Shown: positions 700 to 5,080 of the stretch, in pieces
Position numbering within the stretch: the first letter of the stretch is position 1
Layout: the number at the start of each line of letters is the position of its first letter
Assembly: GCF_003334385.1 (NCBI RefSeq)
Contig: NZ_QOWN01000070.1
Length of the DNA: 9,240 nt
Direction: 5' to 3' (one strand)
Source: Escherichia coli
Lineage (GTDB): Bacteria > Pseudomonadota > Gammaproteobacteria > Enterobacterales > Enterobacteriaceae
Position numbers and translations under genes: made by a program
Notes under the pieces: model-generated
Told to the model about the DNA's origin: nothing
The model's input: the letters and a program-made list of their open reading frames with translations, nothing else
The model's database searches: none

Positions 700-704
700 A
701 CATT

Positions 705-729
705 TAAAAAAAAGCCCGCAAAAGCGAGC
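705..729 (-). terminator. Intrinsic terminator downstream of the tRNA cluster, minus-strand orientation
   Basis: A-run 705-713 then hairpin gcccgc-aaaa-gcgagc (714-729). The single C/A mismatch on plus becomes a G-U wobble in the minus-strand RNA, followed by eight or more U. Confidence 0.6.
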
Positions 730-744
730 CAGGGAAAATAAGTG

Positions 745-821
745 TGGCGCGTTCTACTGTATTCGAACCAGTGACCGATTGCTTAGAAGGCAATTGCTCT
801 GTCCGGCTGAGCTAACAACGC
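745..821 (-). tRNA. tRNA-Arg (anticodon UCU), phage-type (argO-like position)
   Basis: Minus-strand read: GCGTTGT-TA-GCTC-AGCCGGACA-GAGC-A-ATTGC-CTTCTAA-GCAAT-CGGTC-ACTGG-TTCGAAT-ACAGT-AGAACGC-G-CCA. D and anticodon stems are perfect, the T-loop is TTCGAAT, and the 3' CCA is encoded. One mismatch each in the acceptor stem and T-stem. Confidence 0.7.
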
Positions 822-834
822 AGGATACAGATAA

Positions 835-911
835 TGAACCGCCTTCGGGGACCCGAACTCCGCGCAACCAGCTTCGAAGGCTGGCGCTCTTTCCTGATGA
901 GCTAATGGCGG
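835..911 (-). tRNA. tRNA-like gene, possibly tRNA-Arg (anticodon UCG) or a degenerate tRNA pseudogene (argN-like position)
   Basis: Minus-strand read: CCGCCAT-TA-GCTC-ATCAGGAAA-GAGC-G-CCAGC-CTTCGAA-GCTGG-TTGCG-CGGAG-TTCGGGT-CCCCG-AAGGCGG-T-TCA. D and anticodon arms are perfect, but the T-loop is non-canonical (TTCGGGT), acceptor and T stems each carry one mismatch, and the 3' end reads TCA rather than CCA. Confidence 0.4.
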
Positions 912-918
912 TATGTGA

Positions 919-994
919 TGGTGGCCCTTGCTGGATTTGAACCAGCGACCTGGCGATTATGAGTCGCTCACTCTCACCACTGAGCTAAAGGGCC
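919..994 (-). tRNA. tRNA with anticodon CAU (tRNA-Ile2 or tRNA-Met type; ileZ-like position)
   Basis: Minus-strand read: GGCCCTT-TA-GCTC-AGTGGTGA-GAGT-G-AGCGA-CTCATAA-TCGCC-AGGTC-GCTGG-TTCAAAT-CCAGC-AAGGGCC-A-CCA. Acceptor and T stems are perfect, the T-loop is canonical, CCA is encoded; 76 nt. Confidence 0.75.
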
Positions 995-1004
995 GAGCCA
1001 AAAA

Positions 1005-1033
1005 ATAATAATCAGATGAAAATCAATAATCAA
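1005..1033 (-). promoter_or_regulatory. Sigma70-like promoter for the tRNA cluster
   Basis: On the minus strand, TTGATT (plus 1028-1033), a 17-nt spacer, then TATTAT (plus 1005-1010), ending about 10 nt upstream of the tRNA 5' end at 994. Overlaps the 3' end of the AraC-like ORF. Confidence 0.35.
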
Positions 1034-1736
1034 GCCCTTGCCTGGATACATATCTGTCTGGCGGGAAGCCATAATAGCGGTGAAATACAGAAATAAAGTA
1101 GGACCTGCTTGAATAACCGCATTTTTCTGCTATAGCCTGTCCATATCCATGCCGGGAACATAACATATTTACAGCAACACGCATCCGCTCTTCCAGCAAC
1201 AAGCGACTGAACATGCCCCCTTCATTTTTCAGTTTTGTCTTTAACAAACTCTCACTCATATGCAACTGTAGAGCAATCGCACCAAGCGTCCAGCTTGCTG
1301 ATATATCTGTCTGAATTATCGCCCTGACTTTGGCACTTATGCTGGATAAACATCCACTTAAAAACAATGACATCCGTTCATCTGTTTCAAACAGAGACAG
1401 GCAGGCCATCATAAGAAACATATCCGTGGCCTCTCCGGAAAATCCCTGGCTGGTAATTAAAGCCGCAGCCAACGCAGGATTGTTGGGTTCCAGCAACAGG
1501 TAAAGCGGAATGTCAGTCAGACGAGTCCTCGTCAGCTTATGCTGACTTTCCAGATATTGACTTACGACGGATTCGCTTATATCGACAATTTTAACTTTGC
1601 CATAATGCATAAGGAAAAGCTCCCTGATGCATTTGGTGGCCAGAACAACTGAGCCTGGCTTAAGTGACAACGTATCCTTTTCAAGAAAAATATTAATTGG
1701 GGAGCAAACCATGATAACTGAACAGACAACAGCCAT
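1023..1736 (-). CDS. AraC/XylS-family transcriptional regulator, YdeO/AppY/GadX-like
   Basis: ORF track, 237 aa, ATG start. The N-terminus MAVVCSVIMVC resembles the M-x-x-VCSV start I recall for YdeO/AppY. The C-terminal region (SESLLKTKLKNEGGMFSRLLLEERMRVA ... IAEKCGYSSRSYFISVFHRYYGFPP) has the pattern of the AraC-family HTH. From memory, not searched. Confidence 0.8.
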   Translation of the reverse strand: MAVVCSVIMVCSPINIFLEKDTLSLKPGSVVLATKCIRELFLMHYGKVKIVDISESVVSQYLESQHKLTRTRLTDIPLYLLLEPNNPALAAALITSQGFSGEATDMFLMMACLSLFETDERMSLFLSGCLSSISAKVRAIIQTDISASWTLGAIALQLHMSESLLKTKLKNEGGMFSRLLLEERMRVAVNMLCSRHGYGQAIAEKCGYSSRSYFISVFHRYYGFPPDRYVSRQGLDY

Positions 1737-2068: not shown

Positions 2069-2192
2069 GTCTTTTTACCCTTTCCGGTTAACGTGACATA
2101 CCAATAACTCTTGTCTAAAAAGCCAGCAAGATAAAAAGCCAGTATTCACGACCACCAGCGTGTTTACTGTACTGCACCAAGTTTACAGGTAC

Positions 2193-2217
2193 AAAAAACC
2201 CGCTCAGTGGCGGGTTT
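2193..2217 (-). terminator. Intrinsic terminator (minus-strand, possibly weakly bidirectional) in the divergent intergenic region
   Basis: A6 run 2193-2198, perfect 6-bp hairpin acccgc-tcagtg-gcgggt (2198-2215), then ttt. The minus-strand RNA is a hairpin followed by UUUUUUGU; on the plus strand only three U follow. Confidence 0.5.
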
Positions 2218-2334: not shown

Positions 2335-3510
2335 ATGGATATAACTTGTTTAGAATGTGGCAATGTTCTTGACGACCCAACTGTAGCTTGCGATAAATGC
2401 GGTGCCACGCCTCATGTTGTAGTGCTGGGCAAACAATCGTACTTTCCTATTGGTGCTGTAACAGCAAATCTTGAAAAAAATGATTCAAGAGCATTTGATT
2501 ATCGATTAGGTGAAGTTTGGGATCTAAAAAATGAAGTCACATCTGAATTCATAACCAGAATTGAGAAAAAATTTAGCCGAAAAAACAAATTTCATAACTT
2601 CCTAGACTCAGATCACAACCCTTCATCCATTCCTACGATCCTAAAAAAATACATTAATAAAAATAATGAATTCATTGATTTATCTAGAGCTATAATAGAG
2701 AAGCTTAAACATAATGCTAATAACGAATCGAGAGTTGCCCAACTTCAGGGGGGGAGCGTTGTTTTCATCCACTATAAGTCTACCGAACCAGAGGATTTGG
2801 GGAAACTTCTAATCGTAATGGTTGATAAACAAAGCGCCTATGACTTTGATTCGGATAAGTTGACCCCAACAAGATTAAATCCAATTAATACCGATGCCTT
2901 ACGGCAGGCTGCGATGTTCGATTTAACTTTATTCGAAGCCAGTTATCCAGAAAACAAGGGTGACTCATATGTACATTTCTTGCAAGGTAAATCTAAAAGC
3001 GATTTTTTCAAAGACTCATTAGGTTGCCGACATGATTCGGACAATAAAAGAAGCATTCAGCAATTATTCAGTGCTATAGATATTTTTGCTAGTAAAAACT
3101 CACTCGGTCGTGTACTGCGTGATACTATTGACAATGAAGTTAAATCCTTACTGGAAAAAAAATCAAAAGATAAACACGGAAATAAGTCCGTTAAGATAGA
3201 GGATATTTCAAAAATAATTGACTCATGCCTGACTGATTCACACAAATGTAAGGGAACGTTTGTCGATTTTGTTAATCTTAATGGTTTCCAGATTGACCCT
3301 CAATTTGAACCAACTCCTAAAGCAGCTGAAAGCGCGCTTACAATTGAAGTGGCAGATAACGACAATAATTTTAAGTTGAAAATAATGCGTGGAGCTATTG
3401 GAGACGAAAAGTCAAATAAGCCTGTAATTCTCACTGACAACAAATGCGAAATTGTGATAAAATTGAGTCAGGCAAATTATGATGAACTCAAAAGATATAG
3501 AGACAGCTAA
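2335..3510 (+). CDS. Cassette gene 1: N-terminal zinc-ribbon fused to an NdpA/YejK-like (NA37 family) nucleoid-associated-protein-like domain
   Basis: ORF track, 391 aa. The DNA is AT-rich (about 30% GC on a sampled 60-nt line, versus about 58% on a sampled line in the helicase gene). CxxC-x10-CxxC at C5, C8, C19, C22. The motifs GGSVVFIHY ... LLIVMVD ... AAMFDLTLF ... YVHFLQGKSKSDFFKDSLG match the order and spacing I recall for E. coli YejK (GG-V-LF-HY ... LLVAVL ... ARIDLTEW ... [22 protein letters not shown]). From memory, not verified. Confidence 0.8.
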   Translation: MDITCLECGNVLDDPTVACDKCGATPHVVVLGKQSYFPIGAVTANLEKNDSRAFDYRLGEVWDLKNEVTSEFITRIEKKFSRKNKFHNFLDSDHNPSSIPTILKKYINKNNEFIDLSRAIIEKLKHNANNESRVAQLQGGSVVFIHYKSTEPEDLGKLLIVMVDKQSAYDFDSDKLTPTRLNPINTDALRQAAMFDLTLFEASYPENKGDSYVHFLQGKSKSDFFKDSLGCRHDSDNKRSIQQLFSAIDIFASKNSLGRVLRDTIDNEVKSLLEKKSKDKHGNKSVKIEDISKIIDSCLTDSHKCKGTFVDFVNLNGFQIDPQFEPTPKAAESALTIEVADNDNNFKLKIMRGAIGDEKSNKPVILTDNKCEIVIKLSQANYDELKRYRDS

Positions 3511-3512
3511 TA

Positions 3513-4727
3513 ATGACAATTGCTGATGACTTATCAAGATTAGCGCAGATTATTAACGGAGCCTCAAGCAGAGTTGAGGGCTACTACACTGTCATAAGTC
3601 TTGAAGAAAGCATTGTTATTGTAAATAGTTCTGAAATAATTAGACTGTTACAATCTATAGGTTATAAAAAGGCAACAACCTGCATCGAAAATAATGAAAT
3701 TTGGCTAGATCGCCAAGCTTCATCTTGGGATGACGCTATAATTTATGAGAATGTTGAGTCTTTTTGGTCTAGAGTAAACACCCAAAACGCTCTTCCGAAA
3801 AATTATATCATCGGAACGCCGTTAATACTCCCTACTTCTAAGAATGAAAGCATCGAAAAAATCCATATTTTCTTTATGTGGAAAGATATCCTTTCATTAA
3901 TTGCTGATCATCATAACAGTGACTGCTCTGTCTTATTTTTCACCAATGAAGACAAAAGTTATACAGTCGAACTCACGCATTTTTTACAATATAGCGAGAT
4001 TAATCGCTTATCGAACTCGTCTCTTAAATATGAAATTATAAAGGAGCTTCTCGACACAATAAAAATCAATGATTTACACAAAAGCGAGCGCAAGCTCGTT
4101 ATACGCTCAGCCATAAACGAAGTATTTAAAGCAAATGGTACGTTCAATTTCTTTGACTTGCTTAACTCTACTGAACTCGTCAGGAAAAAATATGATGAAC
4201 TATATGAGATTTACACAAAGAGGTTTTCTGTAAATAAAATTCTTAACGAACTCGATGAGAAAAATCTTGAGTTCACGAGTAAAATTAACGAATTCATATC
4301 ATCTAATCAGACAAAAGCATTGACTATTCCCGGTGCATTAATAGCTGCTGGTGGCTTAGTGAAGGCTAATGAAACAACCGAAGCAATATTGATTATCGCA
4401 GGACTTTGGATGATAAAAAAAGTCAATTACATTTCTATTGAGATATTCAATGAAACATTCGACAACTTACGTTCTCGAGTGGAGTCCGCTTTCGATAAGT
4501 ATTTAAAGTTTGAAGAAAATAAAGAAATCAAAGATAATGCAGATAGTATTAAGAGTAGCATTACAGGTTTGATTGATAAAGCTAAAAAAAGGATGAGAAC
4601 TGTTAAATATCTCGCATCAGCCATGTTTTATGGAGGCCTTATTTACGTTGGATATAAACAGTTCCCAGTCTTTTTTGAAAAATCGGCAGTAAATCTATTT
4701 TATTTTTTATGCCATACTATAAGCTAA
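3513..4727 (+). CDS. Cassette gene 2: predicted membrane-associated protein of unknown function (candidate effector)
   Basis: ORF track, 404 aa. The ATG lies 2 nt after the gene 1 stop, indicating an operon. AT-rich. Hydrophobic segments ALTIPGALIAAGGLV and AILIIAGLWMI (about nt 4318-4420) and the C-terminal YLASAMFYGGLIYVGY (about nt 4608-4680). No catalytic motif recognised. Confidence 0.8.
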   Translation: MTIADDLSRLAQIINGASSRVEGYYTVISLEESIVIVNSSEIIRLLQSIGYKKATTCIENNEIWLDRQASSWDDAIIYENVESFWSRVNTQNALPKNYIIGTPLILPTSKNESIEKIHIFFMWKDILSLIADHHNSDCSVLFFTNEDKSYTVELTHFLQYSEINRLSNSSLKYEIIKELLDTIKINDLHKSERKLVIRSAINEVFKANGTFNFFDLLNSTELVRKKYDELYEIYTKRFSVNKILNELDEKNLEFTSKINEFISSNQTKALTIPGALIAAGGLVKANETTEAILIIAGLWMIKKVNYISIEIFNETFDNLRSRVESAFDKYLKFEENKEIKDNADSIKSSITGLIDKAKKRMRTVKYLASAMFYGGLIYVGYKQFPVFFEKSAVNLFYFLCHTIS

Positions 4728-5063
4728 CATTGCTAAACAGCCGTCAACAAACCCCATTGCAGTTTGCAGTTCCTTCCTAATTGTGCCATCAGAGCATTTT
4801 CTCTTCTTCGCAATAGTACGTAATGAGATACCGATAACAAAGTGGGCGATGATGAGCTCATATTCCTCTGGTTTATACCTTCTCAACCGAGCCACACAAC
4901 TGTCTATCATGATGCCTTCGTCATCATCACACTGAATCCGTGACTTTTTGCCATGAGGTAAAAGTCCCTTGAAACCAGCCGCTATCGGCTGCCAGTCCAC
5001 TCCGCTATTGTCTGAAGCAGCCCAAGCTCCCCAACGATCCATTACTTCATACATATCACGCAT
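4707..5063 (-). CDS. Phage antitermination protein Q (QuuD-like small Q family)
   Basis: The ORF track calls 4707..5078 from a TTG. I prefer the in-frame ATG at 5061-5063, which has GGAGA 6 nt upstream and gives MRDMYEVMDRWGAWAA..., matching the M-R-D...ERWGAWAA start I recall for DLP12 QuuD-type Q proteins. The 3' end overlaps cassette gene 2 convergently by 21 bp. Confidence 0.75.
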   Translation of the reverse strand: MRDMYEVMDRWGAWAASDNSGVDWQPIAAGFKGLLPHGKKSRIQCDDDEGIMIDSCVARLRRYKPEEYELIIAHFVIGISLRTIAKKRKCSDGTIRKELQTAMGFVDGCLAMLAYSMA

Positions 5064-5080
5064 CAACTTTCTCCACAAAA

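Follow-up and report, generated by a model that had tools for sequence, protein, structure and literature searches.

Probable decay of the two arginine tRNA genes in a prophage copy of the lambdoid ileZ-argN-argO operon of Escherichia coli

The 9,240-nucleotide stretch of Escherichia coli DNA analysed here (contig NZ_QOWN01000070.1 of assembly GCF_003334385.1; the window) contains, on its minus strand between positions 704 and 1033, the ileZ-argN-argO operon known from lambdoid and Stx-type phages. The operon, with its putative promoter and terminator, is already annotated in the record of phage 933W (AF125520) and is nothing new in kind. Both arginine tRNA genes are damaged in this rare copy of a known operon, which points to ordinary prophage gene decay. 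With a probability of roughly 65 %, the window can be read as holding a self-contained tRNA operon of known type that is undergoing neutral decay, in which argN, and probably argO, would be impaired or non-functional and in the process of becoming pseudogenes. Taken together, the sequence, its comparison with related copies and thermodynamic predictions suggest that argN is probably non-functional or poorly functional and that the function of argO is probably impaired.

Three tandem tRNA genes, in the order CAU-UCG-UCU and separated by spacers of 6-7 and 13-14 nt, occupy positions 745-994 of the minus strand; the strand had not been given in the first-pass annotation of this DNA. ARAGORN distinguished a Met/Ile2(cat) tRNA at 919-994, an Arg(tcg) tRNA at 836-912 and an Arg(tct) tRNA at 745-821, all on the minus strand, and the Rfam tRNA model agreed, with scores of 70.1, 43.4 and 53.4 bits, respectively, against a gathering score of 29, and with E-values (4.3e-14, 9.3e-7 and 1.7e-9) far beyond chance. 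These correspond to an ileZ-like tRNA with the anticodon CAU (919..994), a degenerate allele of an argN-like tRNA-Arg(UCG) (835..912; Rfam body 838-911, then UCA at 837-835) and a damaged allele of an argO-like tRNA-Arg(UCU) with an encoded CCA (745..821). Identical gene copies are named tRNA-Ile, tRNA-Arg and tRNA-Arg in RefSeq. A 601-base query across the tRNA cluster matched 306 phage records, mostly of Stx2-converting phages, at 92-96 % identity, and the matched Stx-phage GenBank records name the genes ileZ, argN and argO, as had been proposed from the letters alone; the window could also be aligned to AP012539. The same query found matches in 3,099/5,426 complete E. coli genomes, at a median of two and a maximum of fifteen places per genome, the best of these (99.8 % identity) being lambdoid prophages of the non-Stx type in human isolates, O104:H4-like ones among them. 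AF125520 annotates pT, ileZ (AUA), argN ('CGH; CGG?'), argO ('AGA; AGG?') and a terminator, all of which align with the window. Searches of the full-text literature for the gene names ileZ, argN and argO, and for expression, tRNA-seq or Northern data, returned nothing. An 81-aa ORF on the plus strand (695-940), antisense to the tRNAs, has no RefSeq annotation and was rejected as spurious.

A putative sigma-70 promoter precedes the operon on the minus strand (1005..1033), comprising a -35 element TTGATT (1033-1028), a 17-nt spacer and a -10 element TATTAT (1010-1005), with 9/12 matches. It ends 10 nt upstream of G1 of ileZ, and its -35 element overlaps the final codons of the upstream AraC-like gene. 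The promoter scan is by itself not significant (5 sites vs 3.1 expected). The pattern TTGNNN-N17-TA[TC][TC]AT-N7-10-ileZ is found in 116/124 related copies, and over 36 unique upstream sequences conservation reaches 99.5 % in the -10 element and 85 % in the -35 element, against 55 % in the far flank. Furthermore, the site aligns with the feature 'pT; putative tRNA promoter' of AF125520, and the dedicated sigma70-like promoter postulated in the first-pass annotation is thus a homologue of the known pT. Its conservation supports the view that the cluster forms an independent transcription unit. The discriminator region after the -10 element is AT-rich in the window (TTTTTGGCTC) and GC-rich in 933W (CCTGCGCCC) and most copies, while some copy variants carry a terminator hairpin immediately ahead of the -35 element. 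The operon is closed by a predicted intrinsic terminator (704..730, minus strand), in which eight consecutive T come after a hairpin GGCTCGC-TTTT-GCGGGCT (730..713). The terminator scan hit both the window and a Stx2a phage, the hairpin is kept in most copies, and AF125520 labels the aligned site a 'possible rho-independent terminator upstream of the stx genes'.

The phage genes of the window follow the order replication-protein fragment, DnaC-like loader, DnaB-like helicase, DUF968/HNH protein and Q, the last being a Q-like antiterminator on the minus strand (4707-5078). Between Q and the tRNA operon come a convergent DS-1 anti-phage system of two genes on the plus strand (2335-4727), a small ORF (phrog_331) and a regulator of the AraC/YdeO-like kind (1023-1736), and two copies of the STnc100 sRNA follow the operon (464-669 and 1-186). 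The operon thus belongs to the late region and lies downstream of Q, as had been suggested, but the DS-1 pair, the small ORF and the AraC-like gene intervene. Phage 933W has the three genes in the order seen in the window, and their strand with respect to the late genes agrees as well; the unit is about 91 % identical overall, and its promoter (TTGNNN-17-TATTAT, 9-10 nt upstream of ileZ) and terminator hairpin are homologous to those of the window. Unlike in 933W, however, no stx genes follow in the window, where the STnc100 copies come directly after the terminator, whereas the stx genes of Stx phages are found between the argO terminator and STnc100. Q is 3.7 kb upstream in the window, the DS-1 pair and AraC-like gene being inserted in the interval. 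In the near-identical prophage L001 (99.8 % over the 601-base query), genes for an esterase (nanS-p-like), a holin and a lysozyme follow the tRNAs. The whole window is present in no complete E. coli genome, the best coverage being 71 %, as is expected of a mosaic prophage. tRNA genes in the same niche downstream of Q, with a proposed role in rare-codon supply, have been described in Sf6, SfI, P21, ST64T and Stx2e/Stx2f phages (PMC3636060, PMC7366253). The sets differ among these lambdoid phages, with Asn/Thr in SfI, Thr/Gly in Stx2f phages and only Met/Arg in Stx2e phages, the last pattern corresponding to those sampled clusters in which the middle gene is dead.

The first gene of the window operon, ileZ, is the sole intact tRNA gene of this copy, encodes its CCA and is taken here to be functional. 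Its annotation in RefSeq and GenBank is tRNA-Ile, 'codon recognized: AUA', and it is of the lysidine-type Ile2 kind. One ileZ allele is common to 108/124 copies and scores 72.5 Rfam bits, as compared to 70.1 for the window allele. The difference from it is a private C25U change, unique in the sample, that converts the G10-C25 pair to a G·U wobble and so keeps the pairing. The first-pass annotation had considered both the CAU and the UCU tRNAs to look functional, and for the CAU gene this holds.

The window argN can be written as CCGCCAU-UA-GCUC-AUCAGGAAA-GAGC-G-CCAGC-CUUCGAA-GCUGG-UUGCG-CGGAG-UUCGGGU-CCCCG-AAGGCGG-U-UCA. Pairing is perfect in the D arm (GCUC/GAGC) and in the anticodon arm (CCAGC/GCUGG), and U8, A14, G18G19, A20, U33, C35 and the G53-C61 pair are kept. 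The acceptor and T stems are not fully paired, with mismatches A6·A67 and A52·C62, respectively, the T loop UUCGGGU has G58 in place of an A that is highly conserved in the Rfam consensus, and U73 at the 3' end is followed by UCA and not by CCA. The perfect arms, the T loop, the stem mismatches and the TCA end had all been described accurately from the letters alone. The argN of 933W (CGGGG-UUCGAGU-CCUCG-AUGGCGG-U-CCA) is a fully paired cloverleaf with A58 and CCA, and the window allele differs from it at eight positions, including the two new mismatches, G58 and UCA. These oddities are therefore specific to the allele and are not a property of argN in general. Four of the changes in the window allele, G52A, A58G, U67A and C74U, are derived and uncompensated.

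The canonical argN alleles score between 53 and 58 Rfam bits, as compared to 43.4 for the window type, 43.0 for the argN of phage Stx2a_WGPS6 and 37.5 for a further-decayed relative, while none of the rearranged argN alleles were matched by the Rfam model. The Stx2a_WGPS6 gene, which has one T-stem mismatch, had been considered as a 933W-type argN; this was rejected, as the 933W allele differs from it and is fully paired. The three changes G52A, A58G and U67A occur together as a haplotype in fourteen sampled copies, six of which have the added C74U. With a 40-nt query of the argN-argO junction, centred on the C74U base, the UCA allele was found in 29/5,426 complete E. coli genomes, which is taken as the true count (blastn returned 30). 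A megablast search with the 78-nt argN allele gave 132 E. coli records at >=99 % identity, but CCA forms are probably counted among these, since megablast would trim the terminal C74U mismatch from the alignments.

The damage to argO had been overlooked in the first-pass annotation. In the window allele, the conserved G53-C61 pair is lost through C61A and the G6-C67 pair through C67G, leaving G53·A61 in the T stem and G6·G67 in the acceptor stem, both uncompensated; the 933W argO has neither of these pair-breaking changes. The window argO scores 53.4 Rfam bits as compared to 70.1 for the canonical allele, a cost of 16.7 bits, and its cloverleaf is predicted at -15.6 kcal/mol vs -22.0 for the canonical form, a loss of about 6 kcal/mol. 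The statement that the UCU tRNA looks functional is thus contradicted by two pair-breaking changes, although its Rfam score exceeds the gathering threshold and both ARAGORN and PGAP call the gene. The combination of A61 and G67 is present in 5/103 sampled argO copies, with C61 and C67 in 97/103, and 92/103 copies are free of any stem mismatch. The exact window allele was found in 93 E. coli records.

Predicted folding points to destabilisation of argN as well, with the caveat that the energies omit tertiary contacts and base modifications and are suggestive only. The cloverleaf of the window argN is predicted at -20.0 kcal/mol, as compared to about -28 to -31 kcal/mol for canonical alleles, and is outcompeted by a fold of -27.0 kcal/mol in which U54-G58 pairs with C63-A67 (a UUCGG/CCGAA helix), sequestering the T loop. 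The minimum-energy fold of canonical alleles is essentially the cloverleaf (-30 to -35 kcal/mol), while the Stx2a_WGPS6 argN has a cloverleaf energy of -20.1 kcal/mol, close to that of the window allele.

The constraint on the three genes was compared among related copies, for which 120 IMG/VR loci were fetched with the 3' end of ileZ as the anchor; 105 sampled copies include both the middle slot and argO, and 77 of the middle genes are length-intact with the UCG anticodon. In 70 comparable copies, nucleotide diversity amounts to 0.017 in ileZ and 0.018 in argO but to 0.090 in argN, which is thus about five times as diverse as either neighbour; the 13-nt spacer reaches 0.18. ARAGORN found no middle tRNA in 34/126 copies, and the middle gene is rearranged or carries indels in 28/105 (about 27 %) and is fully canonical in 43/105 (41 %). 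The rearranged alleles include a common 93-nt form, in which the anticodon arm is replaced, and a 79-nt form, in which it is deleted. Among the 77 length-intact argN genes, 47 have no stem mismatch, 53 have A58 and 68 encode CCA. A compensatory C50G/G64C allele is present in argO. No compensatory pair changes were found among the 27 unique argN alleles, with no double-sided changes and with shuffles matching the observed values, and, with the alleles 93 % identical to one another, this covariation test is uninformative. In some relatives the middle gene has a UCU or a UUU anticodon instead, and Stx phages are reported to include both a Met-Pro-Arg set ('proline' in TL-2011c) and Met-Arg-only sets (PMC7366253). 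Across the family, argN is under much weaker constraint than its neighbours, and the window argN appears to be at an early stage of decay, unlike its rearranged 79- and 93-nt relatives. Like tRNA pseudogenes of redundant multi-copy families, it has uncompensated mismatches and lost loop bases, evolves faster than its neighbours and has other copies in the genome; unlike these, it is still recognised by tRNA finders and has an apparently intact promoter.

The window-like argN and the argO changes are nested among the IMG/VR haplotypes, with a window-like argN ending in CCA beside a canonical argO in eight copies, the UCA form beside a canonical argO in one and the UCA form beside the damaged argO in five. 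A simple sequential decay is nevertheless only partly right, since the argO double mutant (93 records) is commoner than the UCA argN (29 genomes). This wider spread of the argO double mutant indicates that recombination has shuffled the alleles.

Codon demand was estimated from the window ORFs and the annotated genes of prophage L001. Per 1,000 codons, these contain 10.5-16.2 ATA, 10.5-12.1 AGA, 5.8-6.9 AGG, 3.7-5.4 CGA and 9.2-10.1 CGG, while E. coli genes on average contain roughly 4-5 ATA, 2-3 AGA, 1-2 AGG, 3.5 CGA and 5.5 CGG. The enrichment of AUA, AGA and AGG, but not of CGA, implies a strong demand for the ileZ and argO specificities and a weak demand for CGA decoding, and the weaker constraint on argN fits the finding that CGA is not over-used in the prophage genes. 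Furthermore, the genomes carrying the window copy have further argO copies at three to four places and argN copies at one to two places, and selection may be relaxed by this redundancy too.

The operon would be expected to work as follows. In the lysogen, pT would give basal expression of the tRNAs, while on induction Q-antiterminated late transcription would read through the operon, after which RNase P and 3' processing would free the individual tRNAs. These could then supplement the host supply for codons over-used by phage and moron genes, with Ile2-CAU reading AUA, Arg-UCG reading CGA and CGG, and Arg-UCU reading AGA and AGG. Given weak constraint on argN and further cluster copies in the genome, damage may accumulate neutrally in that gene.

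A less likely but still serious alternative is that the window argN is a working, if sub-optimal, tRNA-Arg(UCG), transcribed from pT, provided with CCA, charged by ArgRS and employed in decoding CGA and CGG, and that its changes are tolerated polymorphisms. The gene is called by ARAGORN and Rfam, is labelled tRNA-Arg in RefSeq, carries no pseudogene flag from PGAP and scores near the argN of a Stx2a phage. Major identity elements for ArgRS are A20 and C35, with A/G73 as a minor element; the window argN has both A20 and C35, and its discriminator U73 is shared with the family (76/77 length-intact members). G58 also occurs on otherwise perfect argN backgrounds (loci L080, L107 and L113), and the window-like haplotype persists in more than 100 E. 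coli records, recombined onto varied flanks. An encoded 3' CCA is the rule for E. coli tRNA genes, but its loss is not an absolute bar to function because CCA can be added enzymatically. Some tRNA genes of phage T4 are CCA-less, their transcripts maturing through RNase BN/Z together with the CCA-adding enzyme, and the window argN, which would need repair of this kind to be chargeable, could in principle be restored by the same established route. However, the CCA-less state in T4 is conserved and functional, whereas the UCA end here is a rare derived change in a family that otherwise encodes CCA. The four uncompensated changes affect conserved features, the predicted preference for a non-cloverleaf fold amounts to 7 kcal/mol, the adjoining argO has decayed in the same lineage and the argN slot often decays across the family, all of which favour neutral decay. 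The first-pass annotation had left the choice between a decaying pseudogene and an unusual tRNA reading the rare CGA codon; the former appears better supported, and as the UCG anticodon is the family norm, the latter description fits the whole family and does not single out the window copy.

It is improbable that the middle slot is a fast-evolving, anticodon-switching position in which the G58/A67 allele of the window has been selected as a tRNA-like RNA, perhaps a nuclease decoy or a resistant substitute. About as improbable is a shift of the middle gene to a non-translational role, as a tRNA-like decoy or replacement against tRNA-Arg nucleases (colicin D-like or anticodon nucleases) or in the processing or punctuation of the late transcript, with the UUCGG/CCGAA helix under selection. 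It is precisely through A58G and U67A that the alternative helix grows from 3 to 5 bp, the slot switches anticodon among relatives (UCG, UCU, UUU and the 'proline' gene of TL-2011c, PMC7366253), and the cluster lies within a moron and defence hotspot beside the DS-1 system. The alternative helix shows no sign of covariation, however, given that its carriers share it by descent and that G58 occurs without A67 in other argN alleles. The damage to argO and the frequent disruption of the slot are better accommodated by neutral decay, and no example of such a role in the ileZ-argN-argO family is known to us. Errors of sequencing or assembly can be rejected as the source of the unusual bases, since the same alleles are met with in many assemblies made independently: the UCA junction is identical in the 29 complete genomes and recurs in IMG/VR contigs L004, L023 and L028, and the exact argO allele is found in its 93 records from many laboratories, while nothing was found in favour of errors, the sole private change being C25U in ileZ (unique among 124 copies).

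Neutral decay of argN and probably argO is of little weight as a finding by itself, and its useful outcomes are practical. Annotation pipelines label damaged argN and argO genes as ordinary tRNA-Arg, and any tally of the rare tRNAs that phages supply to E. coli will thus over-state the number of functional copies. The unequal constraint, strong on ileZ and argO and weak on argN, parallels codon demand, and the family may provide a natural test case for codon supplementation. Finally, tRNA hits beside prophage sRNAs such as STnc100 represent phage cargo and not the remains of an integration site.

Immediately downstream of the tRNA-operon terminator (704-730, minus strand), the prophage sRNA STnc100 (Rfam RF02076) is present in two tandem copies on the minus strand, the first at 464-669 and the second at 1-186, where it is clipped by the window end, with bit scores of 141 and 134, respectively. 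The two copies flank a 99-aa ORF (295-594; phrog_23557). STnc100 likewise occurs in two of the sampled related copies of the tRNA cluster (L002 4662-4873 and L080 316-524). Since the interval between the argO terminator and STnc100 is occupied by the stx genes in Stx2 phages, the window looks like a toxin-less version of the Stx2-phage site in which the sRNA has been duplicated. A 2026 preprint connects STnc100 to the PasD sRNAs, and takes nearby tRNA matches as remnants of integration sites. By contrast, the tRNAs beside STnc100 in the window are phage cargo.

The middle gene of the cluster, argN, is represented among the related copies by two recurrent dead forms, of 93 and 79 nt, neither of which is recognised by ARAGORN or Rfam. 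In the 93-nt form, which is well conserved in many contigs, a sequence that includes AGCAGACGACACGATAACAGGGTTGTTGGTGCGGGGGCGGG substitutes for the end of the D arm, the anticodon arm and the T loop, leaving the acceptor halves and CCA in place. The 79-nt form is without an anticodon arm. Dead forms are found in one set of loci comprising L022, L040, L041, L046, L048, L060 and others (about 21/105 copies), and in a second set comprising L036, L044, L057 and L115. Some other homologues of the middle gene differ in the anticodon arm. These include a variant with a CCUUUAA loop, called as tRNA-Lys (UUU) and carrying C at position 33, which is followed on its 3' side by Thr (UGU) and Gly (UCC) tRNAs in place of argO, and a second variant with a UCU anticodon and an A73 discriminator. 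The anticodon variants likewise fall into two sets of loci (L005, L006, L009, L018, L064, L071, L072, L094, L095, L098, L104, L108 and L120; L003, L016 and L017). As the anticodon arm differs while the acceptor, D and T arms are unchanged, it is suggested that one phage tRNA lineage has switched anticodons. Variation also extends to argO, with the copy in phage 933W (L123 3296-3372) carrying G37 in place of A37 in its anticodon loop (CUUCUGA), a minority allele present in 5/103 sampled copies.

The tRNA promoter is directly adjoined on its upstream side by a gene for an AraC-family regulator related to YdeO/GadX (1023-1736, minus strand; phrog_1450; the match, at E = 4e-31, falls far short of the equivalog cut-off), the final codons of which overlap the -35 element. 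This regulator presumably resembles prophage-borne regulators described in EHEC, which control genes for acid resistance and type III secretion.

A DS-1 anti-phage system of two genes is encoded on the opposite strand, separating Q from the late region. The first of these genes (2335-3510, plus strand) scores 451 bits against NCBIfam DS1_1 ('nucleoid-associated anti-phage protein') and the second (3513-4727, plus strand) 375 bits against DS1_2, with both scores exceeding the curated cut-offs. The 3' ends of DS-1 and the Q-like gene (4707-5078, minus strand) overlap by about 20 nt. The first gene is annotated at only 864 nt in the closest genomes, and the DS-1 region therefore varies among relatives. 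Just past the DS-1 insertion lies a strong terminator-like hairpin, CCCGCCACTGAGCGGG followed by a T run (2190-2215, minus strand), similar to CCGCCGCCGAGCGGGTTTTTT, the hairpin that immediately precedes the tRNA promoter in other phages. For this type of Q, the late promoter pR' is probably located, together with its terminator, in the intergenic region 2069-2334, rather than beside Q.
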